From NCBI GenBank assembly GCA_963924565.1, contig OZ004611.1, positions 22,754,001 to 22,818,000 on the forward strand: 64,000 bases of DNA, written 5' to 3'. A model generated the notes under the pieces. That model worked only from the letters and a program-made list of their open reading frames with translations, searched no databases and was not told the DNA's origin. Below are positions 1,168 through 58,910 of this stretch, piece by piece; the first letter of the stretch is position 1, and every line of letters begins with the position of its first letter. Position numbers and translations under genes: made by a program. Origin of the DNA: Ascidiella aspersa. Lineage: Eukaryota.

Positions 1168-4100
1168 AAATTCTGGATCCTGAGCATCCGCCGCCTCCAC
1201 CCAAGCAAAGAGACAACTCCGTGTCGCTCAAACTTCGCGGCACCGCTGCCTTCCTCAAGAGCTGGAACGCCGTGATCTTCATGTGCACTCCCGTGTAAGA
1301 TGTGGTTGCTTTTAAACTAAGACCACAATGTCTGTTCTGTTATGACTGTTTCCAGTGTTGTAAACCAGAAATTTTGAAATGACTTAATTAAGTCCAAGTC
1401 AAGTCATTTTGAATAAATGACAAGTCAAGTCCCAGTCAAGTCGTAATTAAATAAGAGCAAGTCAATTTCACGTCAAGTCCCTTTCTCTGCGGCGTAGTGC
1501 ACAAGTCATTGACTTAAGTCATTACAAAACTTCTAGAAAATGTTACTCATTTACCTGTGTCTATCTACATTAACTCAAGTGTTATGCTCCTCAGTCTTGT
1601 ATTACCAATATTAGGTATCTATCGCAAAAATAACGCGATTTTGCTCACCTTTTTGCCTACAACCGCCGATTAAAAATATCTTTACCAATTTTTTTTTTAA
1701 AGCGGACCATAACTGACTTGTCTGTTTTGTGTTTGTCGCGATCAGGTTTGAAAAGATGAGCGTGATGAAAGATGTGGGACTCTACATCAGCGATCTTAGT
1801 TTCCAAGACTCGTTGCAGATGTTCCTCATGGCAGGGCCGCAGCAGTCCGCTGAGTTAAAGATGGCTTTTGACATGGTAATTTAACTCTTTTCAACGTCTG
1901 GATCGGTTTGTTCGACTATTTTGCCAAACTTTGGTTAGTATTCACCGAATTTTGCCTAGCCCATGTTTTTCGTAACCTGCTTTGCTCATTTGCTAGACTT
2001 TTGCAACAATACATGCAGAGGTCAATGACCTGGTGTAATTCTTGACATTTTTAGGAGTCAATTACCTTGTGTAACCTTTTAACACCAGGTCATTGACCCC
2101 TAACAAATGTATAATACAATCAACACCGTTTCAGGAGCAAGCCAAGACGTCTAAGATGGAAGAGACACTGATGGAGTTAGAGCGTGAAGGCCAGAAGACA
2201 GACGCCCTTCTCTACTCCATGATACCAAAGGAAATCGCCAAGCGATTGAAGAAAAGAGATCACGGACACAACATAGCTGAGGTGAAGGATAAGCATTCTT
2301 TTCATTAGACTTGTTTTTGTAAAATTCGGGCATTTATTGGGTGTCAAGGATAAGCATTCTTTTCATTAGGCTTTTTTTTTGTAAAATTCGGGCATTTATT
2401 GTAACTTTTGCGCATAAAACAATTTCCTTGCTATATGACGCGTTTCTGTTTTTATTTAGTTAAGTTATTACTCATAATCGGCGATTAAGCTTAGGGTTAA
2501 ATTTTTGCCCTAATTATGACCTGACTTATTTTTTTAATATTCTTTTTCCGGCGTGCCACGGATAAACACGCTTAATGTCCGCTATTACGATTGCGTTGTT
2601 ACGCTGCTTTACCTACCACTCGTATAAAGACTTAACTGAAACCGAAAAAGTAGTTTAGAGCTCGTAGTTTGCTTTCTTTAACTTAAGAATGCTTATGTAT
2701 CACGGTTAGGAATACCACACCGTTGAACAGAAAAGTTAAATGTTTAAAAATATAGTGATCAAAACAATGCCACAAAAAAAATATTAGCACAAGTTATTAG
2801 ACGATTTTCAAGATATTCTGTCGAAAAGACGATCATTTATTATATTTGTGAACTTAACACGAAGAAGAGGCTGAAATAAATGTACTCTGTGCCGCTGTTC
2901 ATTTTTTTTTCTATTTTCCGTTTTTTTTATTTCAGATGTTTCCCGACGTCACGGTACTTTTCAGTGACGTGGTCGGTTTCACAAACATCTGCACTCGTAT
3001 CACTCCGATGGAAGTGGTCGCTCTCCTCAACACTATTTACACTGTCTTCGATTCGCTCAGTGAAAGGTATAAATGGAAATGGCTAACTGTACACGTTTTT
3101 TTCTTTGATGGGCAGGGATCCTTGTTGTTGAACAACATTTCGTTTATTTCAGTCCAAAGATTTTTTTTGTAAATGGCCGTTTTTGTGTAATTCTAAATAG
3201 AGGAACCAGGTGGCACTGTGTAAAGACTAATTGTATTGAATTCTCGACAAGCTTTCGCACAACCCAACAGGTCAAAGTATATAGGAAAACAATTAAAAAG
3301 CACGTAAAAGCACAAGTGCGAGTAAAAGGCGATAAGAATGGTGACGTCTAACATATCCATAGGCACATTCGGCACATTTCATGTATACTTTGACCTGATG
3401 AACCACGGTTATGCGAAAGCTTGTCGAGAATTCAATACAATTTATCTTTATACAGTGCCACCTGATTCCTCTATCTCTAATAATTCGTTCACTTAACCAG
3501 CTTGCTAAATTTAATTTAAATTATTCTAACCCAGTGTTTCTTAACCTTTTTTACTTGGTGGCGCACCTATAAAGACGTATAAAAACGTGGCGGCGCACCT
3601 TGCGAGCGAAGCAAGCGTGAAATTTTTAAGGTGTACCGATATTTCTCTTACATTGTCTTCTTTTTAATTTTAATGGGTTTTATAGTTGCATATCTTTAAA
3701 GGGACTTCCAGCCTTTGAGACTAAAAACGTTATTTTGTACATTAAAGTCGTATTCCGATTAATTTTGGACTTATTTCGACATGTTTTTTCCTTTCGTTCG
3801 CGGCGCACCTAGCAGCCTTCCATGGCGCACCGGTTGAGAAACGCTGTTCTAACCCCAAGACGCAAATAAAAAAATTATGTTAAACAGCGGCCAAAATACA
3901 ATGGCTGTTTTTTTGAAAGGCTAATTTGCTAAATACGCGAAATAACGCAGGAGAACCACGTTTATCTATAAAAAAATCAAATAATCATCCAGCTTATATT
4001 TTTAATTTCCCAGATACGCGGTGTTCAAGGTGGAGACCATAGGCGACGGCTACATGGCGGCGTCTGGCACTCCCGTGCGGACGAAGGAGCACGCACAGAG

Positions 4101-7100
4101 GATCTGCGACATGGCGCTAGAGATGCAGGCGGGCATTTGTCACGTGAAAGAGCCGTCCGGTGGAAACCGCATAAGGATTAGAATCGGTAAGTCAAATCAC
4201 ATGTACCCGGTCCTAAGCTGACTTGTTCACATTAAATTGTCAAATGGGTACACTCTGTACGGATCTGTAATGTAACTTGAAATAAATTGCATAGTCAAAA
4301 AGGTCGAATAGATCGACTTCATCTTGATTAAGACGTTTCGGTACAAGCTTGTATCATCTTCAGTTAATCTGACCGAGAAGTAATTCAAGCATCACTTATA
4401 AAAGGTGGGACGCAATTGTTATCAGTCTAAGTTTCTATAGTTAGAGCAATATTTAGCACCTTCAGATTGTCAAACTTTTGTGTGTTTTGTCCATTCTCGA
4501 AAACAAAACAGAACAAATTTCAGTTGCTTAGAAAAATTCTTAACAAAATTTGGTTACAATCGTCGCATTACATAGTTTCTAGGTAAATAGAGGTGCCTTT
4601 AATAAACAGCCTAGATTGTCCGATACATTGTGTTTTAGTTCCATACTGAAATCATATAATCGAAAAGGCAAACCGAACGCATGTACCCCTTAATACGAAA
4701 ACGGGTGAAAATAAAAATCGAAATTAAGGCATATATAAATCACTTTACCAACTGCGTAAATTCCATTTTTTTTTCTTGCAATAGTAGTTAAAATGACAAG
4801 ATGACAAATTGCTAAAAAAATCGACAAGATCGCAACTGCGGAATCCAATTACAGGCTTCCATTTTGCAAAAAGATATCAACCTTTTTTGTCGGAAAAATT
4901 CCACTTCAACAAACTTGTCCTTCAGTCCAACATTCGCGAACATTTCGAATCAGAAGCAGTGTGCTTTGCGCTTAAATCACCAGCAGCGTATTTTGTTCTT
5001 TTTATATTTTGTATTTTATTCCCTTAGGTATCCATTCTGGAGGCGTGGTTGCCGGCGTGGTGGGCCGCAAAATGGTGCGCTACTGTCTGTTTGGCGACAC
5101 TGTGAACACGGCCTCGCGCATGGAAAGCACGGGCAAGGGCGGCGAAATCCACATCAGCAAGACCGTACGAGATCAGCTGATCGGCACCGATGACTACATC
5201 GTCAAAGACCGCGGGATAATGTACTTCAAGGTAAAACCGGAAATCTGCTTGACTTTTGGGGCTATAGGGGAATGTCCGACAATGTAGAAAGGCGATGCCT
5301 CTCAAATCGCCGTATCGGTACTCGTTCGATACTCGGCTGGTATCGATTCATTTGTGCAATAAATACATGTTTTAAGATCCAGCATAGACTTTGCTACTTT
5401 AAAAGGTGAATTTTTGACACAAACACTAAAACCCGAAGATAAATAGTCCTACGAACTCAAATTTAGGCCTTCTGCATAAATTTTGCATATTTGACCATAG
5501 AGATGACGTCATTTAGTATCGCATTGGATCACGATAATCTTGGCCAATATTATCGGGTATCGGAATAACATACCTGGTATCAGACATTCCTACTTATGAC
5601 TAAGGTGTCGCCTGGGTTAAGGTCAAGTTTCGTGGCACACTTGCCAGCCCAGATTAGTTAGACGCAAATTTTTGGTCGGTTATATATACGAGAATTGGGA
5701 CCACAGAAAAAGTCCTGTGGGGCCCGCATGTCTTCCTACCACTTTTTCGGAAAAATTCATTACATTTATTGGAGATTAATTAACTATATATACTCTCTAT
5801 GTTCGGCGCTTTATAAATTCGTATTGTTTGCTCGTATATGACAAAATTAAAATGTGTTAAGGACCACACATTTTGAAATAATCAATTTGTTTTACTTAAA
5901 TTTCACCCTGCATGCAATATTTCAGTAAGCAAACTTGGGAATTTGTTTTACAAAGTAAACTATAAAATTTGCGCTTTTGGTCGCTTCAGGGTAAAGGTCA
6001 GATGAGGACTTACTGGCTTATCGGAAAAAAGGGAAAGTTCATTGCGATTCCCGGATCACAGTGAGTGAGATTTTCTTTTTTAAAGAATATGTTTTATATT
6101 AAACCTAAGCAAAACAATGATTCTTGAATTCTTACAACAAACTTAACTTTTGCGTCTGCCTCTACAAAAGTTAAAGCATACACTTTTTCGAGTATTTCGC
6201 GTTTTTTTTAATATATTAAAAACACTTAAGCCCATCACTCAAGTGCGACTCCTTTTGCTTTTGCGTTCCGCTTTCCAGTCTCTATTTTAAAAAGGTTTAT
6301 CGACGCGAGCAGCAACGCAGCCGGAATGGTGTCGACCAACAACCACTTGGTGGAAGGCACAGCGACAACCAGCAACAGCGAACCGCAAAAACCCAACAAC
6401 GACTCGAACGATATACTGGTAAACGACTCTACCTATTTGGATGGATAGCGAACTAACTTTAAAGCCAGGAAACTAACTTTAAAGCCAGGAAAGCGCATTG
6501 GCAGTGTTGTAATGATTTGACTTAAGTGCCCTTGAGTCATTATTTTTATTTCACTTCACTTAAGCATTTTGGGCAAAATGACTTGATTTGACTTAGGTCT
6601 TTTGGAGAAATGACTACACTTAAACTTTTTTGAAAAATAACTAGTTTAAGGTTTAAATTTGAAGGTTTTTTTTAACAAATGGCTTGACTGGTTTGCAACA
6701 CTTGCATTTGTAACTGGAAGCAGTGCGACTAAAAAATCATGATGTGTCCCCGAATTTTGAGGGTCTTAAGGTCAAATCTCTCCTTGTAAAACGAACGTTG
6801 AAAGCGAGTTTAGCATAAACGGTAATACCGCGTATGCAGTTGTATGTAAATTTTTAACTGTTTACAGCGAACATTACAGAAGGGATCAGGGTGCAAAAGT
6901 TACGAATAATTAAAAAAATCCGTTTATTTTGAATGTAACGTCCCTGTGTTGTATAGCTGGCTAGAAAAGGCACTTTAAAACTTGTATGCGCGCTAAAATA
7001 GGGCTAACCACAGGCGAATGCTGTCCTTTCGGTGAAAAGTGCAATTGAAAAAAAACTGACGCTTTTTACTTTTCAGAACTTCCGTGAAACCCTGGAAAAG

Positions 7101-9835
7101 ATTTTGACGATCCAGAACAAAAACATGAAGGATTACAAAGAACAGGAACAAAACACTGCTGAAAAAGACTCGGGTAATTAAAGATTACCGGTTATTGGTC
7201 GATTCGAAATCGCACAAGGTATAGATTGCGATAGCCGATATACCACGTGCAAAACTTTTTTCTATTTTTTTACAATATTGTGAAACGCTGCCGGCGTGCT
7301 ACCTTTAAAAGCTCTTGGGCACCACTAGTGGTAAGCGTACTACACGGGGAAAACCCATTAACCTCGATCTAATCGAACTCTCAAAGTAGTACAGTTGTTT
7401 TGACGTTGGTAAAATGGCCTGACATGAAAAATAAACTTAAGACAGGCCGTCAATAATAATCTCTTTGTACCGCAGAATCGCAGATTAGCAGGGAATGTAG
7501 CAACGTGACCTTACCGTGCAACAGCTCTTCAGGTAAACGGCCTTTTGGTCATTTGTTTTTTTGTCGCAATAAGGCGAGGGCTTTGGATCAAGTTTTTATA
7601 TATTGGGATTTATTTAGGAAGTTGAAAATTTGGTTGTCATTTCTATAAACAAATCTCCACTTCCCGCTTTTTCGTTAGTAGGGTATGAATATTGTTTAAA
7701 TGTCGAATCTAATTTGGCTAAAGTGTTAAGTTCGTATTACTGTCATATGCGTTATAACAGCATAACCTGGAAATAAAAGCGCACTGAAAGTAAGTGTTTG
7801 AATCATCTAATTGCAATAGTTCTTTTATAATTAAGCAATATCGTAGCACACAAGATCGCGACTTTTAAGCAATACTAAAAAAAAAGAGTTAAGCATTTAT
7901 ACAGCAGTTGCACTTTAAAGCCACGAAAACAAAAGGCTGGCCGTTTCGGGGTAAACTGGCCTCCCGCAACCGCCATATAACTTTCACGTCAATTTTCGCA
8001 GACGAGAAGTACTCGGCCATCAATATCCTTGAGGAAATGGTGAGCAGCCGAGCCATGATCTACTGTGAGTATACATAACAAACCTTATGTGCTTTTTTTT
8101 CGTTTGTCTGATTAACAAATAGTATAAAACCCCTACAATCACGACACTGATTAGCATTTTCAGCAAATTGTCACGCTATACAAATAAAGGCCTGTGTTGC
8201 GGGAATCCGTCAAAAAGGTTTTTTGAGGTCACGACAATTGTTGCCCCTAGTTGTATACCCCACGACCCCAAAGGTCCCCGACTAACAAGGAAAAAAGTCG
8301 CTATTAAAAGTATCGCCCTTCCCTTATGCAAACACGGCATGGGAACATTTAACTTTCATTCAATTTTTGTCATAATTAAATTGAATCATAGTTTAAACGC
8401 TTTTAAAAAGAAACTACAGCGATGACTTTTATATCAGATTGTTTAGATTCCCGTTCAGGTTATATTCTTCCAAAAATACCATCGACGGAAGCTATTAGTT
8501 AAACTGAACGACTGAACGTAAACCTAACGGACATTAATTCTTAAAACAGCAAATCGCAGTCGCGGCGAAACTGTTTTTCTTAACTAAAATAAATCCGGTA
8601 TCTTTAAAATCAATTTCAACAAGCACTCCAACTTCTTGCACCACACCGCTCTTTGCAATTTGCATACACACATAAGTAACATTTACTCCGAATCAAAAGG
8701 GGAAAAGCTGTCCAAACTAAACCGAAACACGAATATTTAAAATTAAACCAATTAGCCGCTAAACACGCTAAATTGATATCACAAGTCGAACGAAAAACTA
8801 AACAACTTATCAAAACCCTTGCATACATCTATAGGTTACGACATTTACTCCGAATTAAAAGGGGAAAAACCGTGCAAACTAAACATGAATGTTTAAAACA
8901 AAAGCCATTCGCCGCAAAACACGTTTCCTTGATATCGCAAGTCAAACGAAAAAAATGAACAACTTTGAAGTCCCTTGCTGACAACTAAGTTACGACATTT
9001 ACTCCGAGTCAAAAAGGGAAAATCTGTCCAAACTAAACCAAAACACTATGTTCAAAAAAACATAGGCAATTCGCCGCTAAACACGCTAAATCGATATCGC
9101 AAGTCGAACGAAAAAACTGAACAACTTCAAAACCCTTGCATACATCTATAAGTTACGACATTTACTCCGAATTGAAAGGGGCAGTCGCTAAAGCTAAGCC
9201 AAAACAAGCATGTTTAAAACGAAAGCATTTCGCCGCAAAACACGCTTTCTTAAAATCACAAGTCGAACGAAAAACTGGACAAATTTAAAGCCCCTTGCAT
9301 ACATCTGACATTTACCCCGATCAAAAGGGGAAAGCTGTCTAATTAAACCAAAACACGTATGTTTAAAATGAAATCAGTTCGCCGCAAAACACGCTCCGTT
9401 GATATCGCAAGTCGAACAAAAAACTGAACAACTTTAAAGCCCCTTGTGTTGGACTTTTAAAACAAATCCGGCGCTCATCGCAGTCGCTAGCTTTCAAACC
9501 TTAACGGAAGCGCGCTTCTTCCCCCAACAGCTGGTGCATCGAGCAGGAGCACCAGCACCAGCATGTACCGCCAGCCGCAGCGGCCCATGTTGGAGGCGAG
9601 TGGCAACTGTGGAGGCGGCGGTAGCGGAGGCGAGAGTTCCTTCTCGCAGTTGTCGGACAACAACAACCCCGGTGAGCGAGCGAGCGAAGGCGACGACATC
9701 GACATGCAGACCAACTACGAGGGCAGCGACCTGGAAATGGACGGCGACGGATGCAAGTCAAAAAGCGGCGGCAACCCGTTCTTGCGCGCCAAGGCGATCC
9801 GCGACAAGGGATCCAAGTTCTGCGCCCTTCTGTGA
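1168..9835 (+). CDS. Gyc88E: Atypical soluble guanylyl cyclase (Gyc88E/GUCY1B2-like), 5'-partial; PAS/HNOBA, coiled coil, cyclase domain and long C-terminal tail with CaaX
   Basis: Phase-consistent GT-AG exons: 1168-1294 ([16 protein letters not shown]), 1746-1875 ([20 protein letters not shown]), 2135-2281 ([18 protein letters not shown]), 2936-3066 ([12 protein letters not shown]), 4014-4186 ([10 protein letters not shown]), 5028-5230 ([22 protein letters not shown]), 5990-6060 ([10 protein letters not shown]), 6295-6418, 7077-7173, 7476-7532, 8002-8064, 9531-9835 (..KGSKFCALL*). The H-NOX exons lie upstream of the window. Family is certain; exact orthology is inferred. Confidence 0.9.
2285..2401. 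repeat. Tandem duplication, about 61-bp unit, next to a splice donor
   Basis: AAGGATAAGCATTCTTTTCATTAG..GTAAAATTCGGGCATTTATTG twice. Confidence 0.8.
3197..3474. mobile_element. Degenerate inverted-repeat element with a damaged hammerhead motif
   Basis: About 85-90-bp arms at 3197-3281 and 3384-3474 are reverse complements. The right arm has TTTGAC-CTGATGA-accacggttatgc-GAAA-GCTT-GTCGAG. Confidence 0.6.
3532..3846. mobile_element. hAT-type MITE
   Basis: TIRs CAGTGTTTCTTAACC / GGTTGAGAAACGCTG; perfect 8-bp TSD TTCTAACC. Confidence 0.85.
4326..4369 (-). ncRNA. Minimal type-I hammerhead ribozyme motif (Penelope-type)
   Basis: The minus strand reads GATTAA-CTGAAGA-T-GATACAAGCTTGTACC-GAAA-C-GTC-TTAATC. 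This gives a perfect 6-bp helix I, a palindromic helix II, a loopless helix III and a GUC cleavage triplet. Confidence 0.7.
5265..5592. mobile_element. CCGATAC/TATCGG-motif MITE family
   Basis: Ends TAGGGGAATGTCCGA / TCAGACATTCCTA with repeated ATCGG/CCGATA motifs. Related fragments at about 28120-28370, 29088-29152, 30325-30650, 33749-33800, 55745-55970 and 57920-58000. Confidence 0.55.
8660..9445. repeat. Minisatellite, about 5 units of 150-163 bp, in the last guanylyl cyclase intron
   Basis: The unit ACATTTACTCCGA..AAAGGGG..CAAACTAAACC..TTCGCCGC.AAACACG..CAAGTCGAACGAAAAA starts at about 8679, 8841, 8995, 9158 and 9308. Confidence 0.85.
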
Positions 9836-9924
9836 TCTTCAATTTCCCTCTGCCCTCGATTTATTTCCTTGTTGTGCGTCCTTGTGTTTCGGTGTGCCGT
9901 TGTAGCGGCTCGGTGTGCGTAATT

Positions 9925-9930
9925 AATAAA
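9925..9930 (+). promoter_or_regulatory. Candidate polyadenylation signal of the guanylyl cyclase
   Basis: AATAAA about 90 nt after the stop codon, followed by GT/T-rich sequence. Confidence 0.4.
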
Positions 9931-12346
9931 AGTCTAGGGATAACCGATACCTGTGTGTTTTATGTTGTGAGCCGATATTTGTGGCACACAAAGTATAGCC
10001 TTCCTCCGTCTGACTCAATACCTTATCTTATAAGGTCATCACTATGGTCAAGTAAAAAACAAATGCGAACTAAAACTCGCAAAGATAATGTTGTCCAGGT
10101 TACATTGCAAAAAATAGTTTAGCGTTTTAGGACTACTATAAGTTCAATTTTTTGAAACATAATAGCCATGAAGCTGTTGTTAGACCTAAAAAAGTTTAAC
10201 AAGACATAGGCTACTGAACTAAGTATCATATTTAAACCTTAGGTTAAAAATGGATTAAGATTTGTTCAAAAATTTCAAAACATGCCACTGTATTATATGG
10301 GCTTTGATATTCATTCTGCGTACTTTTATTTCCTAATTGACTTGTTTAAAAAAGTGTTCCTTTAGGTTAAAAAAATATGTTTAATCGCATGTCTGAAATG
10401 TCCAAATTAGATTGGTTTCGGATCGGCAATGATCCAACTACTAACTCATAGTGACGAACGAGTACCGATCGTTCATCATGGCTTAGGGTTTGGGCTCTTA
10501 CTTGATGATTTTGGGCATCCGTGCATAAACTCTAGTCTAAAGCGGATATACTTATCGGTTAATTGTTGTACAAAGCAAGTTATTTGCCACGGTTTAATCT
10601 TCGCGCGGAATGTAGCAAACGACTCTAAATCTGAGGGGTTGATATTTTTTCGGGGTGTTTTATCTGCCCGGTGACTATTATTTCTAAGCTTGCGGCTACT
10701 GTGCCTCTTGATAATGCACTAACCGTTTAATAATGGCCGTTAAGACTCTGCATTGCACAAAAGTAGTTCATTTTTGGATACTTAAACCTAGGCCTAACAA
10801 AAAGTCGGTCAAATAACTAAATACCTGACTACAGAAGTTGGTAACATAACAGTAGCCTGTTTTTGGCAGCGGTCTTGGCGCCCCTTAAGCTCTTGAAGAA
10901 AAGTTTGGCCTTTGAGTGCCAACTATCGTTCGGAAAATAAAGCAGTCTGGTTTAAGAGTGCTTGCTGTAAATATGCATGCACAGCAGTTTCCCATGTCAA
11001 TTTTGCCTAGTATTACGAATAAACTAATTCTGTCTGAAACTCTGCTCAGTGATCCAGCTAAGACCTAAACAAAATCTTTTCCTGCGTCGCGATTCGTTGT
11101 TTTTAGTGCAATTGTATAACGAGTAGACAGGGCGACACAGAACAAGGACATTTTTGAAAATATTCTTCTACACGCACCAGGTATCTGTCGCTCACACTTC
11201 ACTCTAAAAATTCGAAAAGAATATTTTCAGGTGCGTGTAGTAGAATTGTGTAAAAATGTGGAAGTGTTTTGCACAATAACATTTCAGAATATTGCCCCCG
11301 TGCATATTACTTTCCCCTGTTAGAGCCGAGGGTTCTCCCTTCTCGAAGTAACTCTTTTCTATTGCTTTAAAAGCCAGAAGAGGTTTCGAAATAGCTTCTA
11401 TTTCTCACTGAAATAGCATCAAACTTATGAACACTTCAGCAAGCAAAGAAATAGTGTAAAAAATGTTTAATCATTTAACAATTCTGAGGAATCTTGGAAA
11501 GTTGTAGACAGGGTAACACTCGTGTCATCTTCATGGTTGGTTTTTAGTCAAATTGTCTGTCAAACCTATCTTGTAATAACACGTCGTACTAAAACACACA
11601 TTTGTTAGTTACAAAACTTAGGCTATTTCCAAGTAAAGTCAGGTATACCCTCCATGGTTAAGTTGACTTAAGTCGATCTTCATTAGATATTGCTGTACAG
11701 TTGCGGAACTGTAAGCACACTAAAACGAGGGTGCAAAGTAAGCTGAATTTGTATGCAAGCTATGGCCATAATATTATAGCCGTTTTTGCAGGTTATGTAA
11801 TCCATTTGCAGGAGCGTATACAATGCCCGTTTCTGACAACGTACATCCTTCAGCGCGTGTAATTCGAAATATTAGGATTTTGGTCATATCGTGAAAAAAA
11901 GTCTTTCAGTTGTTGTGCTCACAGAAGCGCACTTCATGACAATTCGTTTGTGGATAACAGAGATTTGGACTATGTTTGGTGGCGAGACCGCACTGCGCAG
12001 AATAAAAATAACCGGAATTGACATTGGAATAATATCTTTTGAAACTGGCTTACAAGGCTGTGAAGCATGAGGTGCGTGATGTGCCTTTGTTTATGTGTTT
12101 AGTACCTATCAATCGCTTCATAGATAAGCTAACCCAATCTGAGACAAGTGAAGAAACATATTGGTTTGGTCAGCAACAGTTCGTTTTTTACTCAGGCCGC
12201 CACCTAAACCACTGTCGAATATTCATAAAAATAAATATTTTCTAATATAACTCCATGTGAGAACGAAACCTTGAAAATGTAATCATTGTTTTTGCAGTGA
12301 AGCCGTTGTATAGGTGGTGTATAACACTATGGGATCGCATCTAAAA

Positions 12347-12677
12347 CAGGGATTATCTGGGGTCCACGGGGGAACGTGAACTCTTATTAGGCGGTCCATG
12401 TATGCCCAATTGAAGGATTGGTGTGTATCTAAGAAGTAATCCAATTTCCAAAGAAAAGAGTTGAATTAAAAAATAAAACATTTTTGCACTGAATGTATTC
12501 AGACTTCATTTCACTTTCACATTTTTGGACCGAAAACAGCAGATTTCTAAAGTTCATTTGTATTGTGACGTAACTGTATGACGTCTTTTCTAAAAATTTC
12601 TTTCCTTATGTGGTCCATGCTCCATGCATAACAAAAAAATTTTAGGAGCCCGTGGTAAAAAAGTTTAAGAAACCCTG
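12347..12677. mobile_element. hAT-type MITE just 3' of the SCO1 stop codon
   Basis: CAGGG...AAGAAACCCTG ends; TSD ATCTAAAA/ATCTAAAG. Confidence 0.7.
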
Positions 12678-12699
12678 ATCTAAAGAGATGAGTTCTTCA

Positions 12700-15600
12700 T
12701 CAACCATGCAACCGCTTGTAGTTCAACATACTCTTCTTGATGCCAGAGGCGATATCGTCTTTTGACACGGACCTCGATCCGAAATAATCAACGAAATTGC
12801 CTTGCGGGTTCATGAGGTACATCACGATCGTGTGATCAACCTAAACACATATTTATCAAATGACATCACGAATCTGAAAACTTTACAAGCTATACTTTAC
12901 GCCAGGGGTCCGCAAATAGGGGGTCGCGGGACCATTCAGTTTGAGTCGCAAAAGCCTTATTTATAGCTGCCTATATTTGGTAAGTTTTTTAATTGTTTCC
13001 ATTAGTACACTGAATTATATACAAGAGAGTCGTCTTACTTTGAGCGCGACTAGAATTGTCACGCGAAGTATATACATTAAGCCCCGTAAAATGTCGCGAG
13101 ACCTTCGTTCGATCCAGGTGATGGGAAAGAGCGATTGAACCAACACTATTTTGGCGATTACCAAACCAAACTGACCTACTTACCGCAATCTGGGTTTACT
13201 TCCTAGTATGTGTTTTTAAAACACTTTCTTTCCGGTTTATGTAACCAAAATGTTGTTCTCGTAAAATTTAAATATGCAAATTTAAATCGAATAAATATTT
13301 TTTTGCGTAACGCGAAATGTAATGAGCATTATTGTCTCTATTAATATTAACATTTTTGCTAACATAAACTGCTTAACCAGGTTATGCATTTTTTTCACGA
13401 ACTTTAACGATATAAACAAGCTATTATAAGACGCTTTATGCGAATCTTTATGTTTGCGGAAATATTTTTGTGTGGTCAAGCGTCGTCCACCCTCTTAAAT
13501 GGAAAGTTTTGCCAATCTGGTTGCGTTTGGCGCATTGAGTTAGGCTGGACAAAGCAGGGTATTTAACGTCCTTGTGTTAAAATATCGCGTTTTGGTTTAA
13601 ATTTGTTACATCATGTCTTGAAACAGAGGTCGGCAACATACGGCCCGCAGGCTGAAACCGAGTGAAAATCATCTAGCCCGCAAACTCTTTTACAAACTGT
13701 ACACAAGGCGATGCTCAAAATTTTTAACAGTTTTAACTATACGAAAATGCACAAAAAAAAAACATTTCGTGACCCGCGCGTATCTAATTTGACTTTGAAT
13801 TATATTTGCGTTTTGATGGAATCTTCTTAAACCAAAGGTGACGTGCGCACGACAACTATATAAGGAAATTTTTCGTAGCATGAAACCCTCTAAAATCCAT
13901 TTTTTTCCAAATTAATTGGCTGATGTTATTTTTTTATGATATGTTCATATTTTATTTTGTGTGCGGCAAATGCGTCACGTCTCCTTGTATATTAAAAGGG
14001 GAATTGGTTGGGATGCAACCCCGGGAACCCATATTGGGTGCGTAATCATATTTGTCATCCTAACAATACATCACAAGTAGTAAAAGTCAAGGCTTCTTTA
14101 TAGTTGTGTTACAGAACACTCTCTCTTTAAAAATGAACAAACCGCATCACACAGATTTGTCTTAATAAATAGAAACACAATAGGTTATTAAAAACAACTC
14201 GAAGTATTTGGGTCGCGAGACCTCAGTACTAGTAATTCTGGGTCGCGCTTAAAAGTATTTGCGGACCCGTACTTTACGCGACTTTACAACCGATAAATTA
14301 AATAGGTTTCATATTAACCAGTTGGTATCTGGTTGTTTAATACCTTTTTTATTACACCATTTGGTCAGTAAATAGAAAAGGTTGGATACTTGGTTTTTTT
14401 TTGATACAGTCTCATCGGATACTAAATGACTTAAATTAGCAAAATGGATCAAATTTAAGTCTTACGCAATTAGCAGGGCCGACTCCCTAATCTGACTCCG
14501 GCCAAAAAAATAAACCCCAGTCAGCTCCCGAGTCCCAAATCATAATACATGATTGGAAATATTCACCATGCTATTCCACCTTTACAATTTGCAGCTTGCG
14601 GTAATATCAGTTCCAAAAGTCAGACTCGGGTAGTTTTACATGGTCTTACTCCAGCAAAAATAAACCGACTCCGATGAGTCCCGAGTCCGACTTCGCAGCC
14701 CTAGCCATCAGGGCCTTGTACAAGTACTAATACTATGCCAACTGCTAGGGACTGGATTACAGCAAAAATATACTAACAATATAATCGTTGTCGTCGTCTT
14801 TAGGTCCAGCGCTGAAATAAACGCGGAAAGCCTTGGTGGCTTGCTTTATGTTCTGCTTGGTTCCAGTCAATCCTACAAACTTCGGATGGAACTCTTTCAC
14901 ATAACTTTTCACAGCCTCCGGCGTGTCACGCTCTGGGTCAACCGTAATAAACAAGGGCAACAGATCCGGAATGCTTTTGTCTGCATCTGTTAAAAAAAAC
15001 TTGAATTAAGGTTGGCATTAAATTAAAATTTACACTTTTTGGCGGTCTGGCGAGTGCTTACCAAGTAACACTGGCCAAAAATATCGGCATGTCGTCTTCG
15101 AATTTCGGTCCGCCAAAATTGCTTTTTTATTTAACCTGCCTTAATACTATTTCGGTGCGATACACAGTTCTTAAAGACAAATCAGCAAGTTATTTCGCGC
15201 ATAGAAATACAAACAGAAAGTTATATGCTAACACTAACTAACGTTTTTTATCGGAAACCCACACGCCCACAACTGCACAAGTTGACTAATACACGATATT
15301 TTGACTATTGATCAATCCTTGAACAGACTCGTGGATTTATAGTCATTACAAACGTCCTACGCAAAGTAATAAAAATTGATTTTCTCTTTGACAGTTCGAG
15401 TCAAGTAGTTCTACCGTAATACCATAAACACTCAAACAGGGCGACTTTTAAAACGTTTCTTTTTTATCGGTCTTGGTAAACCATTATTATTTCGTGAGCT
15501 TTTGTTATGATTTCCGCTGCGCAAAATCTCTTCCTGGGAAATATTATTAAACAAATCAGATGCTCAGTAAACTAACTAGTCCTACACTACGAGACTGTTT

Positions 15601-18600
15601 CGTGTGTTTATAAAAATATTTGATGCGTAGCACTTTTTACGACATGCGATGCGTTCGGTTAATTTCTTGTTGTAGTTGAACAAAAGTACATCTTAAGCGA
15701 CTAAATGAATCATTTGGTTTTCAGTCTCTAAAGTTGAATATAATTTGTTACATATCAATAAATTTAAACCTTCAGTAGGACTAATTTTTTGGTTATCAAC
15801 TAATTTTTTGTTAAGGGCCCTCGGGCGAGCCAGTCGGACTAATGGGTGTCTATCAGTACTACTACATTTCATCAAACGTATTCTTGTTTAATGATTACAA
15901 CAAAATATTTGACCAGATAAATAAAATGTAAGCTTTTTAAGGTTTTATCAAAATTTTAACCACACCTACCGATTGTGTCAATGATTTCAGCCATTTTTTC
16001 CAGTTCTTCGGGGCAAATATCCGGGCAATGTGTAAAGCCGAAATACAATAGCAACCATTGGCCCATGAAGTCCTGTTTGCTGACAGTTTTGCCTGTTTAA
16101 AATATTTTTAGAATGTAAACAAAGTTGATTGTATTGCATTAAATTATTTCTTGTTTGACCCGTTCAACCAATTTTAAGTTTAAAGCAGTGGTTCTCAACC
16201 TTTTTTTCACCGCGTACCACCTCGAGCTTCTATGATCTTGTTACGTACCAACAAATTGTTGACAAACTCAACTTTACTCAAAATGTATATAGGATTGTTA
16301 ACAAGGGTGGATTAGACAATTAGTTAGCCCGGAAATCTCAAAACAAATGCGGCCCACCTCAAAAAAAAAAAAACATACTGCGTACAGCGTACCACCCAAA
16401 ATGACTTCGCGTACCACTAGTGGTACGCGTACCACAGGTTGAGAACCACTGGTTTAAAGGTTGTCAATTTGGTATCGTCAATAAATCGTCAAAATTTAAC
16501 AACATTTATTGACATGTCAATGGTTAATCCGGATACCAAAATTCATGAATTTTATTTCTTTGGAAATCAATTTACCTTCCAATATGAGAATGTTTTTTGG
16601 ATATTACTGTTTTGTGGACATTAATTTGTCCATGGCAATTATCAACTAATCAGAGTCATTTAACAGAAATACATTCTAGTTGTCTTAAATTAATGTTTTT
16701 ATGTCAAGCCTTATTTTATATTAATACTGTTACAAACATTATTCATGAAAGGTCATTGCATAATTAAGTCGTAATAAAAATGAATGTATCCAGTCTTCAC
16801 CAAAACAGGGTTGATTATTACCACATTTACAAAATCAAATTACTGATAAATAGTATAAATCAAAAACAGCTTCTCTGGTAATTGTAATTGTTAACCAACG
16901 TTTCGGCAACCTATACAAGCCGCCTTCGTCAGGGTGATTGACACTGAACATAGGTTTCATAGTTCAGTGTCAATCACCCTGATGAAGGCGGCTTGTATAG
17001 GTTGCCGAAACGTTGGTTAACAATTACAATTACCAGAGGAGCTGTTTTTGATTTATATTATCATGCCTGGTAGCAACACTTTATATACTGATAAATAGAT
17101 AGCATAAAACATTAGTGTAAAATTAAAATACCTGTGTGGTCAATAAGCTGATAATCATCAGCACCGATGTCAACTTTACTTAGTTGCTCTTCCCTTTGAA
17201 CAGCTTTTTCTTAGAAAAGAAATTGTGTTTAATATAATTATTGTCAGGTTCTACCATTATAAATTTTAATTATGTGAAATGTTTACATGGTTACTTACTA
17301 TCTTTTTTAATTTTGTTCGCACAAAAGTAGATTATTCCCCAAACTGCAAGAATTGCAGATATGATGGCGACTCTCTTTGCAATAGGCATACTGGGTTCTG
17401 CTTTCTTTGCTTCTTCAAACACTTTCTCTGCATTTTCATTTTTTGAGTGATTATCGCTATTTTTAGAGTCTGATAGGTTAAGTCCCGTAGTGGTGATTTG
17501 CCTTTGCTGAAACACTGTGCTTCCTGCAAAATGTTGGTTTGTGTCAGTTGCAAACACACTAAAAAGTCTTCCACAAGCACAACTGGGCGCAATGGGTGGC
17601 TTCCGATAAACCTGGAAAATGAAACTGTTGATTCACTTCACATTGATAAACTATTGACACACATATACCATATTGTAAAGTTTGGCAAAACCTTAAACCA
17701 CCAAAAATGGTTAATTCTTTAATGTAGGAGCAGTGTCTCAAGTAAAAAAATATCAAAAACACAATCCATGGCAAGCAAATTTGTGTTACAAACAAAAACT
17801 TAGTTTACCGCAATTCTATTAAAACAATTAATGACAACAGTTAATTTCAAACCAAGTTATTTCATCCAACTGGACTTGAGTCATACTTGAGTTATTTGTC
17901 CAAAGGATCTTTAAAAGTCAAAGTCAAGTTATCGTTCCAAAAAGACTTTTCAAGTCAAGTCAAGTCATTTAAAAACAGTGCCTTATGTGTATTTAAGTAA
18001 GTCATTACAACACTGCGCTGGTATAGTACTTTGCAAGTTTTAGAAAATCATGTTATTTCAGCTACGCAATTCCAAAGTAATTTTATTTTAGCTGTGCGAT
18101 TTTAAGATGCATAACCTGAACATAGATCTTGCCGTTTGCCAATATTTATCCCATCTGCCACATATACACAAAGCTTTACTTGGGCAAATTTATTGTAAAA
18201 CAGGAATTCTTAACAAGTGCAAAGACACAATTGGGAGTTGGAACTGTCAAAAGATAGGCAAAAATCAGTCATTTTCGGGGACTTTGTGAAATCAACTACA
18301 AAAAGTATATAAAAATATATTGTGCTGGCCTATAATCCAACCACAATGCAGATTATTTGGGTTAGGTTGTGGGTTAACTTTTGGGTAGGTTAAGCAATAT
18401 TATTAAATAATAAATACGGTATAACATTTCTTGGCCCACCCTCACCCAAACGCTAATTGACATCCTAACCCAAATACTGTGCGTTGCTTTAATAATTGCT
18501 TCAACACTGTGGCAGGATTCTAGACCATCATCAAATAGCTATGCACAAATAAGGGTAAAGTATTTTTAGGTGACTATTTATGTTGAAACAACAACAATTA

Positions 18601-20972: not shown

Positions 20973-51734
<30,762 letters not shown>

Positions 51735-52759
51735 TGGATTGCATATTCCATGTTTTGTATCTGTAAAAAACAAGAGTGGTGCAGAAACTAACAAATATAA
51801 CAATTGGTTTGGAAGCGGGCAATAATTCATAATTAATTATTATGTAAATGCAACAATTGTTTTTAGTTTTCCAGCAATTTACTGCTTGCGCTGATAAAAC
51901 CGAGTTATTTTAAATTATTTTTTTAGAACTTTTTTTTAAAATTATTTTTTTTAAGAACAAATGACAAAAGAAATATGATTTTTTGTGGAGACTCAAGATT
52001 GCAAAGTTTAGCCTTGAGCCCCACGACACTTTTAATAGAAAAAACATCATCAAAAATTTTTATATGCATGTATCAGCATATTAAAACCTTAAAAAACAGA
52101 CTGGTCAGTCCGTCAGTGGGAATGAGATTAAGCAAAACAAGAGCTGCAAGGCCTAACCTTTTAAAGTTTGAGACCTCTTCATACTTTGCATTGCTTCTTC
52201 TTCCATGTTAAGGGCAGTTTTATAATCTGCCATTTTTACTGAAATTCAATGCCCTATTTCGACATTTAAATCATTAGGAAGAACAGAAAACAAAAACAAC
52301 TATCTTTTTCATACATGCGTTTTAAGTTTTTAGACACTTGTTGTTTACAATATATTTCGACCAAACAAATCAGGAAAAAGCCAGGTACCACAATCTCATA
52401 TAAGGTAATCGAATTGAAGAAAAAATATTGCTTACATTACAAACAAATATTTAAAACTTACTAAATATGAATTAAATGGTTATATTCATTCAGTTCGTAT
52501 TATTATTATGTTATTTAATGTTTTGATTTTTTAATGTGGTATCTGGTTGTCCTATTTATTTGAGACATTAGCATTTGTTTTTATTTATTTATTTTTTTTT
52601 TCGCTAAATAGAATTTGCCACTTTTTTCAATAAATTTGCGTCGCATATAAACTTGGTATGTATTCTTTACTGAAAATACATTTACGTAACAAAAAATAAA
52701 TAAAACCATTTTTATATATTCTTATGTGCAGTTTTTAATTTTTTTCATGTGGCGTTAAA

Positions 52760-52850
52760 AAAAGATTTCCCGCGCGGTGGAGGACGCCATTTTTATTTTA
52801 TGTTCCACATGGTAATAGGACCGGTGATTGTTCGCCAGAAAAGGATGTGA
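52760..52850. promoter_or_regulatory. Probable bidirectional promoter between PI3K-C2 (-) and the Boule-like gene (+)
   Basis: Small CpG-containing patch in otherwise AT-rich DNA between divergent genes; CGCCATTTT (YY1-type AAAATGGCG on the minus strand) at about 52785-52793. Confidence 0.4.
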
Positions 52851-54334
52851 ATAGCTTTAAATGTATTAATTTCAGAATAGTAAAGGCTGTTAAACCAGCC
52901 TTAACACTTAATCCATATTTTTGGTTACAGTAATGAAGCGAGTCGTCAAAGTTTAATTTGAAGGAAGAAATAAAAATGAGAATTAATATAATAATAACAC
53001 TCGACCTACCCTAACCATAATAATGTTAAACAAATATGTGGTAGGATTCTAGACCAGCGCCATTGTTTGACATTATAATTATGTCGATAATAAAATATTA
53101 GTTTTTGTTAGGTTTGTTCTTTTTTTCTGGAATATGCTGTTTGCCCAATGTGTGATTATACCACTGAGTCTTGTTTGGATAAATTATTTTCGTTGATATT
53201 GTCGGAGATATGTATTCACTCTAAAAAACCATAAATCATTCTTATGTTTTTGCACTTTATCCCCCCCAAAAACAGACCTCAAAGTTTATGTTTTTTAATT
53301 GTAACAATCTTTCTGGACTAAAAACTATATTCCATGTCTAAAGTAATCCAAGATAGACTAAAATATGGGTGTTATAGAAATGAAAAAAATGTTTGGTGCG
53401 ATAGCTTAGAGTGGCAGCAGGCATAGAAATGGCAACTTCTTTATTGTAATAATCTTACGTAGGAGGTAGGACTCTTTATTGAAAACAAATTATTGTGCCT
53501 TTGTAATAAGAAAGATGGTGTGTGTACATGCAGCACAGTTTGTTATACCAAAATGCAGTAGGAGATGGCCTTTTAGTGGTGTTCAATCCTGTGGTAGATG
53601 TTAAAGCCAAGCTATACTGTTTAGCAGTGGTTCGTAATCTTTTTTCAAAAAGACCTAAAATTTATTAAAATATCCATCTGGTGTATCTTGTGACCCAAAA
53701 TTACATTATAAATAATGCATAGCAAAAAAAACAATTTGTATTTTAATACATTTTATGTGGTGCCTAACTTTTTACTACACAACAAACAAGCAAAAAATAA
53801 ATCAACTAAAATGGATGCCAATTTTGCAAACTAGAGACAACCTCCATCAGCACTAAAAATAACAAGCATGTCTTATTTTATAACAAAACAAAAAACCAAA
53901 GAAAGAGGCTATTAACCCGGACACCAAAGTAGGGCATAAATCACTAACAGGTTGCAATTTCTGTGATGCCCATTTTTGTGGACCTTTTTTTGTTTACTCT
54001 GTCTGTAAATTCAATTATTGGGCAACCCATACAGTGGAAAACACTGCTGAATAGTGTGTACTAGTGAATGTTGGACAACATTTTTATGATTATGTGATTC
54101 TTGATCAATTTTAATAACCTGCTGATGTAAAACATTTCAATTTAAAAATAACTAGTAAATTCAACTATGGATTTAAGACTTTAGTGTCCTGCAGTAAACC
54201 ACTTTAAAATTTTTAAATATCCACTCATACCATTGTACATTTTGTTAATAAATTTGAAAGAAATTGAATTTATTTTTAGATATTTTAAAGATTTTAGCCT
54301 GTCGAAAACTATTGTGTTTTGCTCGACCAGCAAC

Positions 54335-55186
54335 ATGGAAAAAGATAAAAGTGAAGAAGCAATGTTCAGCCTTTGCTTGCAAGAAACTCCCAGCTCTGTT
54401 ACGTCTATTTCTACCCCAACTTATGTTCCGCAGCCCATCAATCAAAAGTCTCACTTCATTCAGAATCGAATTTTTGTTGGCAACATCCCAGCCACGGTAA
54501 CTCAGCGCCGCATGACCAATATGTTCCGACGCTTTGGCGAGATTATTCAGATCAATATCATCGAGGACGGCCCAAGCTTTTACGCCTTTGTTACTTTTAG
54601 TAGCATCGATGCAGCAAATGCAGTGCTCAGTTTGTATCAGCGAGGCAGGGAATTTACAATGGACGGTTATGAGTTAAAGATCAATAGAGCATATTTCAGG
54701 CCCAAAAAGCTGAACAGTGTTTCCAAATATGACCAAAGAGTGCCAGTAGTTGTTCCCCAGAAAAGAGTAATAGAAAGATTTTGCCAGGGCACTACTTATT
54801 TCCAGCCAATGCCCTTGCCATTCACTGTCCCACTGCCACAATCAAACCTGTTTGAGGCCCACCAACGATATGCAAGTATGCCCCAACTCTCTGTAATTCC
54901 ACAGACAAAACATAACATCCTGCAGCCAGCTATGCCATTTGGCACCACCACTTCAAATAAAATCCCAATGCCTCCTATGTTTAACAAAGGCTATCAAGGA
55001 CAGAAGAATACAGTGCGGAATGAGCCCTTCAAAGGTGTGGATTATTCCCATATGCAGTTTGACAATGTCAAAACAACTCAAAACCCTCCTGAGACAGTTC
55101 TGCATCCCTTTGCTGGAGATTTGCATGCTGGCAATCATCTGAAAATTGGCAGTGTTTTGTGTTTTAACCCCAACTGTAAGTTTTAA
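54335..55186 (+). CDS. BOLL: Single-RRM RNA-binding protein, divergent Boule/DAZ-like, 283 aa, uninterrupted coding exon
   Basis: ATG in aacATGg context. RNP2-like QNRIFVGNI (Boule PNRIFVGGI), RNP1-like FYAFVTF, LKINRAYFRPKK after the RRM, GTTYFQP (cf. Boule GVAYFH), then a P/Q-rich tail. The RRM is certain; Boule orthology is inferred from motif recall. Confidence 0.7.
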   Translation: MEKDKSEEAMFSLCLQETPSSVTSISTPTYVPQPINQKSHFIQNRIFVGNIPATVTQRRMTNMFRRFGEIIQINIIEDGPSFYAFVTFSSIDAANAVLSLYQRGREFTMDGYELKINRAYFRPKKLNSVSKYDQRVPVVVPQKRVIERFCQGTTYFQPMPLPFTVPLPQSNLFEAHQRYASMPQLSVIPQTKHNILQPAMPFGTTTSNKIPMPPMFNKGYQGQKNTVRNEPFKGVDYSHMQFDNVKTTQNPPETVLHPFAGDLHAGNHLKIGSVLCFNPNCKF

Positions 55187-56754
55187 TCATGAACCTGGAT
55201 TGTCGAGAATCTTGTATATATGTTTTTATTCAGCATTCTGTTTGAACTTCGATTGTGTTACCAGGTTTTTAATCATGCAGCTCTGTGAAGCTTTTCGTTT
55301 TTATTTTTCCTCTACTTTTTTCAGGTTAATTTTGTATTTCCACAAGTTCTCAAGAAATTGTGCATTGCCTTGTTTTCACTACTTGCTGTGATTAAGTTCA
55401 ATTTAATTCTTCACTTTGTTTTAAAACTTTTTATGTTTTCCCACTGTTTTGCATATAAACTGTGTATTGATTTTACTGTGTTTTTACCGTTTTAATACAA
55501 CTTCGTTCCTTTGCTTATTTTCAGACTTTATATAATGAGCAAGATTCGTTTGCAAGAACATTATTCTTCATAGCCTATGTTAAAACATGTAAAAAACTGC
55601 TCCTATTTTAGATGGTTTTACATTTCCTGAACTAATATTGTCGTCAGGGTGAAAATCCATTTTTTCAAGCTCCATTTATCTGCAACTAGCAATTTACGAT
55701 ACGTGGGATTTATTTGTACAACCTATATGACATGTTTTGGAAAACGTCCGGCTGTCCGTACCGATACCAAATGGCGTCTTTTCCAGGTTTATTAAACCAA
55801 CAATTTAGTTTGGCATGAAGACAATAATTTTCTTCAGTTGTTTAAGCTTTGCGAAAAGAAATCGCCGTGTTCGCCGCAAATACCGCTAGAATACCTACGT
55901 TTTATCAATTTGGTGCCAGATCGGCAACGATACATACCATTTTAGGTTTAGTATCAGGCGATTACCGTTACTACACGATCTTATAATATTATAAAACATG
56001 CTAATATCTAACTATCATAAAGCCAAATGGAGACAGTGTCAAACAAACACTTAAAATTTATAAAATACAGACCGAACCGGTGTTAACCAGACGGTTGACG
56101 AAGAGCACAAAAGTGAAAAATAAGAAAACTAATATGGCCGAGGTTTCTTAATTTTCAACTTAGCTTAGCAACGTAATTTTTAAAAAATATCATCGTTCCA
56201 GTGATAAAATTATTCTACTTACATTCCTGTATTCGGATGTAGGCTATAACTTTACCCCTAAAATAACAATTAACTTGTTTTGTCTGCATTCGAAAGAGCA
56301 TGTATGACAAAATTAGGTCATTTCGGCAATATTCTCAGTGCTAATTAGTTTACTTTTGTGTTGAATAAGTGTTGGCAAAATTCAGGTTTGTGTTCGCACA
56401 AGTCCCATATTTCTAATTTGACCTAACACTAGGCCTACACGTACAGGCCTATGCTGTATATACAACGAAAGATGTGCACACATATATGTGTGTTAACAAC
56501 TGAGAGATTGCCCTTCGCTTCTTTTTGGCCAACGATTAGGGCTTATGTATCATTAGTACCGTACACCGAAAGCCATTGCAGACTCACCGAATCTGTTGAT
56601 CAATGATGCAAGCAGGGCAGGCTAGAAAAACAACTAGCTTGCAGTAAGAAAAGCAGCTTTAGAATGGCTAGATCTCAGTTGTTAACACATTTATGTACGT
56701 GCAAATTGTGCATCTTTTATTGTATGGCACTGCGGTGGAACCCTTCAATACGAA

Positions 56755-56922
56755 GTGTAGATCAGTTAGTAGAGCGACGGCCCCGGTATGAGTGGAGGTC
56801 GAGTTCGAACCTCAGTGCAGGCTAGTTGTTTTTCTAGCCTACCCTGCTTGCACCATTGATCGTCAGATTCGGCGAGTCTGCAATGGCTTTTTTATGTACT
56901 ATACTGCATATATTAATAAAAT
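56755..56922 (+). mobile_element. tRNA-derived SINE-like element
   Basis: A-box-like TAGATCAGTTAG (56758-56769) and B-box GTTCGAACC (56803-56811), followed by a body and an A/T-rich tail. An inverted copy of the body lies at 56561-56643. Confidence 0.55.
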
Positions 56923-58462
56923 CTTCCATGAGTTAGGCTGAATCCCCACCGGTTAGACAAAAACGCTTTAAAGCAGTCTGATCGCGACTAATGAGATGGA
57001 ACGCTATTTCTTTTGTTGTCGCGTCCCCAACGACCAGACTTGACGCAAATCTTACGCACAGCAGACAGACACGACTAAACGCGTTTTTAGCGGGATAGCG
57101 CGTGCACTACTTTTTTACCGTGTCTGAAGATGCTTTTTGATAGAAACCATTAGTTTTTTACGGGTTTTTGTAGGTTTTATATTACGAATGTTATTTTAAA
57201 AGGTTAGGCAGGTTATTTTTTTTAAATCCAATAAAATTATATTCCTGGAACGGTCGAAAAGTCTTTTAATTCATATCTTTCTTTTCCATGTATGATTTTA
57301 CTTCTCAATGCAGCGGTGACAACTATAGTGTCAAAATCACAACTGCACCGTACACCACATTTTACACTGGATAACTATCGACAAGTTTTTTAATTAGCCA
57401 CTGATGAAAAAATAAACAAACTTTATGAAAACTAAGTAGTTCGAAACACCAGCAGAAAATACTCGTACTAGACTAGAAGCGCGCAAATCTCCTCATGAGG
57501 TGTATTGTTAAATTGCACAATTGCGTTTACGATTACACAAACGGTGGCACAGGAATTGTTGCAACATATTAAAACAAGTGAACAAGACGTTATATTAAAT
57601 AAAGTTGGAATCTCACGCATTATAAGTCTAACAAGAGGTGGAAAACGATTTTCTTTTATTAAGGAGCGTAATTTTATTATTTATCGTTATATTTGCAGGC
57701 AAAACCCGATGAAATCTCACAGAAATGTAGTTCGGTAAAGGGGTAGTGTTATCAATTACATGGTAGTTTTAGCTTAAAGTAAATGCGTTAGCTTAAATAG
57801 TACGTCAAAAATCGAAGGTAGCTAAGTTTCCCAGCGCTGAAGCAACATTTGACGAATAACCTTAAAAGCATTTCGTTTGCACGTTTATTTTTCTTTAATT
57901 TTCATCGTTTGACTATAGTAATGACGTCATTGGCATAATATCGGACGAATGTAAGTAACGGGTATCTGTAACGGAATAAAAACAAGTATTGGGCGTTCCT
58001 AAACACAGAAGCGTCGGTTAAAAGCAGTAAGGGCATAATTAGGAAACTAAACGCATTTTAAAAATTACAAAATTAAAACGACGGATAAAAAACACGTTAA
58101 GGAACGCAATTAACCTTTGTTTCAAAACTGCATCAAAAAAGAAAAAAATGGAGGACGTCATAATCTTTAGAGCTTGCCTTAATGTACGGGGATAGGTAAA
58201 AGGTTGTTTAGATCTTTTTCTGGCAGTTTGAGGTTTATTCTGAAGGGTTTAGGACTTATTCCGACGTTGTACTGAATTTAGTCCTAATTTGACGTTGATG
58301 TTTTTGTAATTTTCGGTCCGACCCCCGGCCTGTAAAAGTCATCCAACGCAGCAATACTAATCAATGACAATATTGTTGAGGTCCAAATGAAATACGCTCG
58401 CTGAACTTGTGACAGAAAGTCATTCACTATTCAAAGCTATATTTAGCTGAAACAATTATAAA

Positions 58463-58651
58463 CTTGATAATGAATTGCAAAGCCAAAGAGGTCGAGTAGA
58501 TCGACAGCATCTTGATTAAGACTCTAACCGAAGATGATACAAGCTGAATAGTAAATATTATACAAATCAATTGAAGCTGATACAAGCTCTAATCGAATCA
58601 AGATTATGTCAATCTACTCGACCTTTTATGACTTTGCAATTCATTACCAAG
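58463..58651. mobile_element. Inverted pair of the same element family as 4276-4369, hammerhead cores decayed
   Basis: CTTGATAATGAATTGCAAAGCC..GGTCGAGTAGATCGAC..ATCTTGATTAAGAC matches 4276-4334. Its reverse complement lies at about 58596-58651, with decayed cores (CCGAAGATGATACAAGC, TTGAAGCTGATACAAGC) between the arms. Confidence 0.6.
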
Positions 58652-58910
58652 CAACAGATTTGTGCAAACTGCATAATGTACCCAATTTATAAACTTCCTC
58701 GTCCATCTGACAGTTGTCGAGCAAACACGTTTATAATAATTGATACCAGCAGCAACATAATTTCAGCTGTAAATTATAAATTAGTCACCCCTCGAAAATC
58801 ATACAATTACAACAACAACGGATAAAAACACGTTTAGGACTCGAATATATCGTAATTAACAATCGTTCGACTGCCAAAAATCTAAAAAAAATAAAAAGCC
58901 ACCGAGATCT

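Follow-up and report, generated by a model that had tools for sequence, protein, structure and literature searches.

Tiny hammerhead loci of Ascidiella aspersa as truncated ends of three families of Penelope-like elements

A 64,000-nucleotide stretch of the Ascidiella aspersa genome (309 Mb; assembly GCA_963924565.1, contig OZ004611.1, positions 22,754,001-22,818,000 of the forward strand), referred to below as the window, contains small loci with hammerhead ribozyme cores that belong to three sequence families, A, B and C. With a probability of about 0.93, these loci are 5'-truncated, non-coding ends of three families of endonuclease-bearing Penelope-like elements (PLEs), derived from the element's pseudo-long terminal repeat (pLTR), and their inverted pairs are likely the product of a reverse transcriptase (RT) primed on both strands of the cut target. 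The evidence consists of the collinearity of the arms with coding sequence for an RT and a GIY-YIG endonuclease, two 3' start points, short target-site duplications, one-sided tails and, in B and C, a hotspot of 5' ends upstream of the hammerhead. An earlier note, made from the sequence of the window alone, had proposed short non-autonomous retroelements and an undescribed system; in sequence terms, each kind of arm is the pLTR end of a different PLE family, and not a new non-autonomous system.

The copies of each family have fixed 3' ends and reach upstream to a variable extent. In the longer copies, a 3' untranslated region (UTR) of about 100-180 nt is preceded by GIY-YIG and RT coding sequence, which bears out the collinearity of the arms with RT and GIY-YIG open reading frames (ORFs) and the link to PLEs that the earlier note had suggested. 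In the family C copy L116, both Pfam domains lie in the same frame (RVT_1, E=3e-10; GIY-YIG, E=2e-7). Family B has an RVT_1 match in L112 (E=1e-7), and family A a GIY-YIG match in L109 that falls under the Pfam cutoff (E=0.001), with RT motifs visible in the alignment; two of eight proteins had no match in the Pfam scan. The order of RT followed by GIY-YIG upstream of the pLTR is seen in A and B too, in B as pieced together from two copies. In the protein alignment, A, B and C all show RT motifs and an endonuclease at the C-terminus, and the B and C proteins are 26-29% identical to that of A, so that families described earlier as unrelated are unrelated only as DNA, their proteins being homologous. 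A PDB sequence search with the intact ORF of L121 returned no match.

A CX4CxxC motif in the linker (CGKSRCELC in L116) is found in family C and is absent from A and B. According to PMC8557442, a CX2-5CxxC motif in the linker between the RT and the endonuclease is tied to the Neptune and Nematis clades. Judged by this motif, family C carries the Neptune/Nematis-type linker, and A and B, which lack it, may tentatively be placed in the Penelope/Poseidon clade. In families A and B the pLTR overlaps the start of the ORF: in the family A copy L128 it runs on into the ORF, the first codons of which lie within the tail, and in family B the overlap is judged from the end of the arm, whose translation, MLSIYSTFLALQFIIKLHYRSVHSV, is similar to the N-terminus of the intact L121 ORF. 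A minimal hammerhead is present in the pLTR; as compared by eye, its helix II pairs in A, B, C, L121, L124 and L125 despite the differences in sequence, and the core is kept between families while helix II changes. Intact frames of 815-880 amino acids are found in the sister families L121-L124 and L126. Some of these sister families form near-identical tandem or inverted arrays, with L123 consisting of 2.67-kb units that are 99.9% alike, and the arrays suggest recent activity.

Exact 26-30-mers characteristic of the families occur in the genome 203 (A), 218 (B) and 307 (C) times, and the reversed controls do not occur at all. Each family thus has at least 200-300 copies, and the arms are not single-copy. 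The candidates of a first look (1531 for A, 1899 for B and 1666 for C, with 40 of each scored) are not copy numbers. Insertions were sampled as exact-match loci in genome order (75 A, 70 B and 70 C); after removal of 14 second arms of pairs already counted and 7 loci that share flanks, 68 A, 66 B and 60 C insertions remained, 194 altogether. The partners of L176 and L223 were assigned by hand.

An adjacent inverted piece accompanies 112 of the 194 insertions, and 100 are two-armed pairs in which both arms reach the 3' end. Either arm of a pair can match the anchor, so pairs are over-sampled and their share, biased upward, is about half at most; the inverted pair, which the earlier note called the usual product, is a common one. 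Exactly one arm carries a tail in 93 of the 100 two-armed pairs (p ~1e-20 against 0.5). The tail is 30-44 nt long and is bounded by two fixed 3' start points, which lie some 30 nt from each other. Target-site duplications of at least 8 nt were found around 77 of 110 pairs and around 34 of 75 singles, compared to 0 of 185 controls, and range from 8 to 17 bp. Arm lengths vary from about 30 nt to more than 1 kb (median 98-124 nt), and 37 of the 194 insertions reach the ORF. Within a pair, the two arms match at 24 of 28 diagnostic sites, and their similarity exceeds that between arms from different loci by 1-2 points. Junctions often contain 5-20 filler bases, and in 12 of the 112 cases the inverted piece is a non-overlapping internal segment. 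Of the arms that span the motif, 29 of 44 in A, 22 of 33 in B and 39 of 47 in C retain an intact core. Among copies, the core carries only slightly fewer mutations than its surroundings (1.6-3.6% mismatch against 2.2-4.9% in neighbouring bases), as is expected for young dead copies.

These properties are, for the most part, those of canonical PLEs with a C-terminal endonuclease (Penelope/Poseidon, Neptune), which share the RT with C-terminal GIY-YIG, the ORF start within the pLTR, an inverted head-to-head copy, an optional tail of 30-40 bp on one arm and target-site duplications some 8-17 bp long. PMC8557442 and PMC3846280 already describe a truncated copy in inverted orientation, a tail on one side and the duplications; what is added here is the count of pairs with exactly one tail and the hotspot of 5' ends at an initiator-like motif. 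The minimal hammerheads of PMC4209133 (Cervera and De la Pena 2014) likewise have the CUGANGA/GAAA core, an unpaired base 5' of helix II and the loopless palindromic 15.2-16.2 pair, and no difference from them was found, within the available text, except for the three new sequence families. According to that paper, such motifs are mostly dispersed and single, with some opposite-strand pairs 100-700 bp apart, the dispersed motifs are probably related to truncated PLEs, and single minimal motifs do not cleave in vitro. Since the opposite-strand pairs and the link to truncated PLEs are already described there, the loci do not constitute an undescribed system. In the Poseidon element PAc of Anolis (PMC11167929), two fixed 3' start points also bound the tail, inside the ORF start and downstream of the hammerhead. 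The anole enzyme in vitro uses the same start sites on both strands, whereas the two arms of the genomic pairs described here almost always have different ones.

The whole window was scanned with a descriptor of the minimal type-I hammerhead with a loopless palindromic helix III. Four cores were found: 16979-17014 (plus strand) and 16932-16897 (minus) in family A, 4363-4332 (minus) in B and 3395-3422 (plus) in C. The B and C cores satisfy only the loose form of the rule, their helix II having decayed too far for the strict one. In 200 resamplings of the window by a Markov model, the number of cores averaged 0.02 and never exceeded 1, and an Rfam scan returned nothing at E<=1. The PLE-derived features of the window are listed below.

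3166-3368, minus strand: inverted arm of family C, tailed, from the 3' UTR/pLTR of a PLE whose linker is of the Neptune type; core destroyed; 88% to the L118 copy
3377-3474, plus strand: family C direct arm, untailed; starts at an initiator-like TCAT motif; core 3395-3422 with decayed helix II
4245-4475, minus strand: single 5'-truncated copy of family B with ORF stop, 3' UTR, core 4363-4332 and tail
16841-16853, plus strand: left copy of the 13-bp target-site duplication TACTGATAAATAG of the family A locus
16851-16949, minus strand: inverted arm of family A, untailed; core 16932-16897 intact; the 5' end precedes the initiator-like A by 4 nt
16950-16961, no strand: 12-nt spacer between the A arms
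16962-17087, plus strand: direct arm of family A; core 16979-17014 intact; tail at about 17061-17087 contains the ORF start
17086-17098, plus strand: right copy of the 13-bp target-site duplication of the family A locus
38356-38438, plus strand: additional decayed fragment of family B, 78%
39780-39921, minus strand: remnant from a further, fourth family of PLEs, comprising pLTR and ORF start; 87% to the L122 family
58463-58522, minus strand: family B inverted arm, untailed and coreless; truncated just 5' of the cleavage site
58521-58543: short extra piece ahead of the family B direct arm
58560-58671, plus strand: family B direct arm, decayed, with the GAAA box deleted and a decayed tail; inner boundary approximate

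Three of the four loci of the earlier note are inverted duplications, as had been stated: the arms are 100 nt long and 97% identical at the A locus and 75 nt long and 89% identical at the C locus, and inverted arms are also present at 58463-58671 (B). The cores claimed for all four loci are found at A, at C and at the single B copy, but neither arm at 58463-58651 has an intact one; in the left C arm the core was lost through a change to CTGTTG and a 6-nt deletion. The units extend further than had been described (the left C arm to 3166-3368, the single B copy with its ORF stop to 4245-4475 and the right A arm to 17087). An ORF is indeed lacking locally, except that the tail of the direct A arm holds an ATG at 17063 followed by seven further codons of the element's ORF (MPGSNTLY). 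The one-tail rule holds for all three pairs of the window, and the 13-bp duplication flanks the A locus, none being recognisable at the C and B loci. The high density noted earlier is supported. Two further PLE remnants, at 38356-38438 and 39780-39921, had been missed. An intact relative of the latter (L122:2860-3000) has TTGAAAA in place of CUGANGA, which matches the U3-A8 core variant of PMC4209133.

The 5' ends of the arms are not spread evenly. In a 15-nt interval around the motif TCAGTC (B) or TCATTT (C), 11-14 nt before CUGANGA, end 34 of the 53 B arms at risk (15% expected) and 33 of the 61 C arms (8% expected), the expectation being the background rate. In family B, a TATA-like TATAAG precedes the initiator-like A by about 26 nt. 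In contigs of the public runs X1 and X3, loose ends fall at L118 4420-4425 (the A of the motif is 4420); contigs of X1, a run that may be the assembly's own source, have them also at window positions 3386 and 4368. A TATA box and an initiator within the pLTR of Adineta Pen2a are reported in PMC3846280, and an internal promoter in PMC2377424. A literature search did not find the hotspot in print, and the supplements of the cited papers could hold it or these families.

It is possible to describe how such insertions would be formed. The enzyme would cut the target with a stagger, and one of the resulting 3' ends would prime at the distal site, giving rise to the tailed arm, while the other would prime at the proximal site, giving rise to the untailed arm. 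The template RNA of both arms would usually come from the same source element. Primed near the 5' end of the transcript, the RT would then run off where transcription begins, some 11-14 nt ahead of the hammerhead, and the two short cDNAs would be joined head to head. Given the hotspot and the internal initiation of RT inside the ORF start (PMC11167929), run-off at the 5' end of the RNA is the simplest reading, and the hotspot likely marks the start of the element's RNA. Such run-off, which is slightly more likely than not, would give the typical tiny hammerhead element of 90-130 nt. The truncated copies are likely dead on arrival. A broader picture, in which a dimer of the PLE enzyme primes both strands at two different sites near the transcript's 5' end and copies to the cap, so that the genome records where PLE transcription starts and an asymmetry built into the pair of primings, and in which the hairpins supply ADAR-edited double-stranded RNA against their own family, has somewhat less than even odds.

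Several points weigh against this account. The B and C counts refer to an interval picked after the data had been seen, and family A shows the hotspot only weakly (12 of 56 arms; p=0.03, or 0.10 on a conservative background). An extra cap-derived G was looked for at the hotspot ends and none was seen, and in the 6% of RNA run X4 that was read, neither the starts nor the ends of reads accumulate. The one-tail rule is broken in 7 of the 100 pairs, with both arms tailed in one and neither in six. The anole assay, in which the strands do not differ, leaves the one-sided tail unexplained. The similarity of arms within a pair could be due to conversion after insertion. Among the copies examined, no intact full-length or partial-tandem master copy of A, B or C was found, the longest having stops, frameshifts or 5' truncation.

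The absence of an RNA start peak and of a cap G, the weakness of the hotspot in A and the frequent filler at junctions would also fit a hotspot caused by stalling of the RT at the folded hammerhead, or by microhomology joining in an AT-rich patch. Such an origin, which would leave the identity of the elements unchanged, is somewhat improbable: the ends cluster after the RT has passed the whole motif and not before the hairpin, the AT-rich stretch of C goes on upstream for another 20 nt or so, where ends do not accumulate (2 of 28 at -91 to -100), B has its TATAAG, and a TATA box and an initiator are described in the pLTR of Adineta Pen2a. Pairs might alternatively form by self-priming or fold-back on one antisense template instead of from two primed cDNAs, as was proposed for Adineta Penelopes (PMC3846280). 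The diagnostic variants shared by the arms and a GTTAAC palindrome as the joint in two B loci agree with fold-back, which is nevertheless unlikely, since unequal 5' ends with spacers or filler, not perfect palindromes, are the usual outcome, the inverted piece can be a non-overlapping internal segment, and a subfamily site differs in 4 of 28 pairs.

That the loci are dedicated short elements, retrozyme- or SINE-like units or hairpins of about 100 nt mobilised by PLE proteins in trans, is very unlikely and already largely refuted. The common fixed 5' ends of B and C and the median arm length would suit such elements. The arms, however, have no private sequence and are collinear with the 3' UTR and ORF start of autonomous elements; their wide range of lengths and the insertions that reach the ORF are those of truncated copies, and the core decays much as its neighbours do. 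Non-LTR retrozymes (bioRxiv 10.64898/2026.07.22.740005) are similarly non-coding and pLTR-related with a type-I hammerhead, but are defined as arrays of tandem units, each of which holds a hammerhead, while the copies here are dispersed, single or inverted, and collinear with coding elements. No tandem array was seen in 135 mapped loci, a handful of which have one second copy on the same strand. Two B hairpins, L248 and L251/L252 (C1:30436366 and C1:33239145), have an identical complex junction, different flanks and duplications, and tails on opposite arms; they were possibly both copied from one source hairpin, so that re-copying of hairpins may occasionally take place. This junction occurs only twice in the genome, which rejects re-mobilised hairpins as a subfamily, and repeated junctions with printed flanks mostly share those flanks and thus look like segmental copies. 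A single C hairpin with internal 46-nt repeats is found, duplicated with its flanks, in four places on contig C2 (L311, L327, L333 and L334); a larger repeat probably carries it.

Terminal inverted repeats of DNA transposons, in the form of miniature inverted-repeat transposable elements, would also account for inverted arms with a target-site duplication, and had been named in the earlier note as a potential refutation. They can be practically discounted: symmetric terminal repeats, a fixed length and a fixed duplication were not found, about 40% of the loci are single-armed, the inner ends are variable, the outer ends differ by the tail, and the arms run on into RT ORFs, a linkage that refutes this origin. 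Templating of short copies by ribozyme-cleaved RNA was considered because 18 of 89 A arms end at -31 to -40, just 3' of the cut site (-41). It is unsupported, as the A ends are spread out and this bin adjoins the anchor used to select the sample, the junctions are not at one palindrome, and no such peak is present in B or C.

The features are real, and their kind is known: truncated pLTR copies left behind by three PLE families that are themselves new. As a system they represent ordinary mobile DNA with a modest mechanistic clue. Their value is that of a natural record of second-strand priming and of the formation of inverted ends by PLEs, the mechanism of which is still open (PMC11167929). 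The one-tail rule and the hotspot provide two sharp predictions, for an in vitro assay and for the mapping of start sites. The additions to the known picture are the hotspot, which takes in over half of the B and C arms at risk, and a cluster of A>G changes in family C RNA reads.

The A pair of the window is predicted to fold into one hairpin (-180.7 kcal/mol) in which both cores are buried, and the silencing of the ribozyme by a self-annealing pair, as suggested earlier, agrees with this model. For pairs in general, too, the prediction is that the hairpin encloses the hammerhead. In run X4 (mRNA-type RNA from another individual, 6% of which was read, with strandedness uncheckable), 11 of the 16 A's at L118 4302-4399 are read as G in 29-60% of the reads and almost never in contigs, and at most one such G is found at these sites in any of 84 genomic hits. 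The cluster looks like ADAR hyper-editing of some C-family hairpin; in animals, inverted repeats are edited as a general rule (PMC5625713). Against this, A>G is only slightly in excess overall (25 places, compared to 18 for G>A), and the cluster may come from a single transcript. Within the 6% of X4 that was read, none of the listed back-joints is supported. Unique flanks and host exon bins at window 2600-8400 have zero or almost zero reads in X4, so that expression of the window loci cannot be judged.

The C pair and the single B copy (4245-4475) lie in introns between exon pieces with nucleotide-cyclase motifs (window ~2940-5150, plus strand; motifs at about 2960, 4027 and 5027-5078), which we take from these motifs to belong to a guanylate-type nucleotide cyclase. 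Other repeats of the window include an 80-nt inverted pair at 56569-56890 that does not match the A, B or C references, a GACTT-rich dispersed family at 6510-6630, 35246-35716, 40418-41347 and 61385-62102, and five tandem copies of about 160 nt each at 8670-9464.

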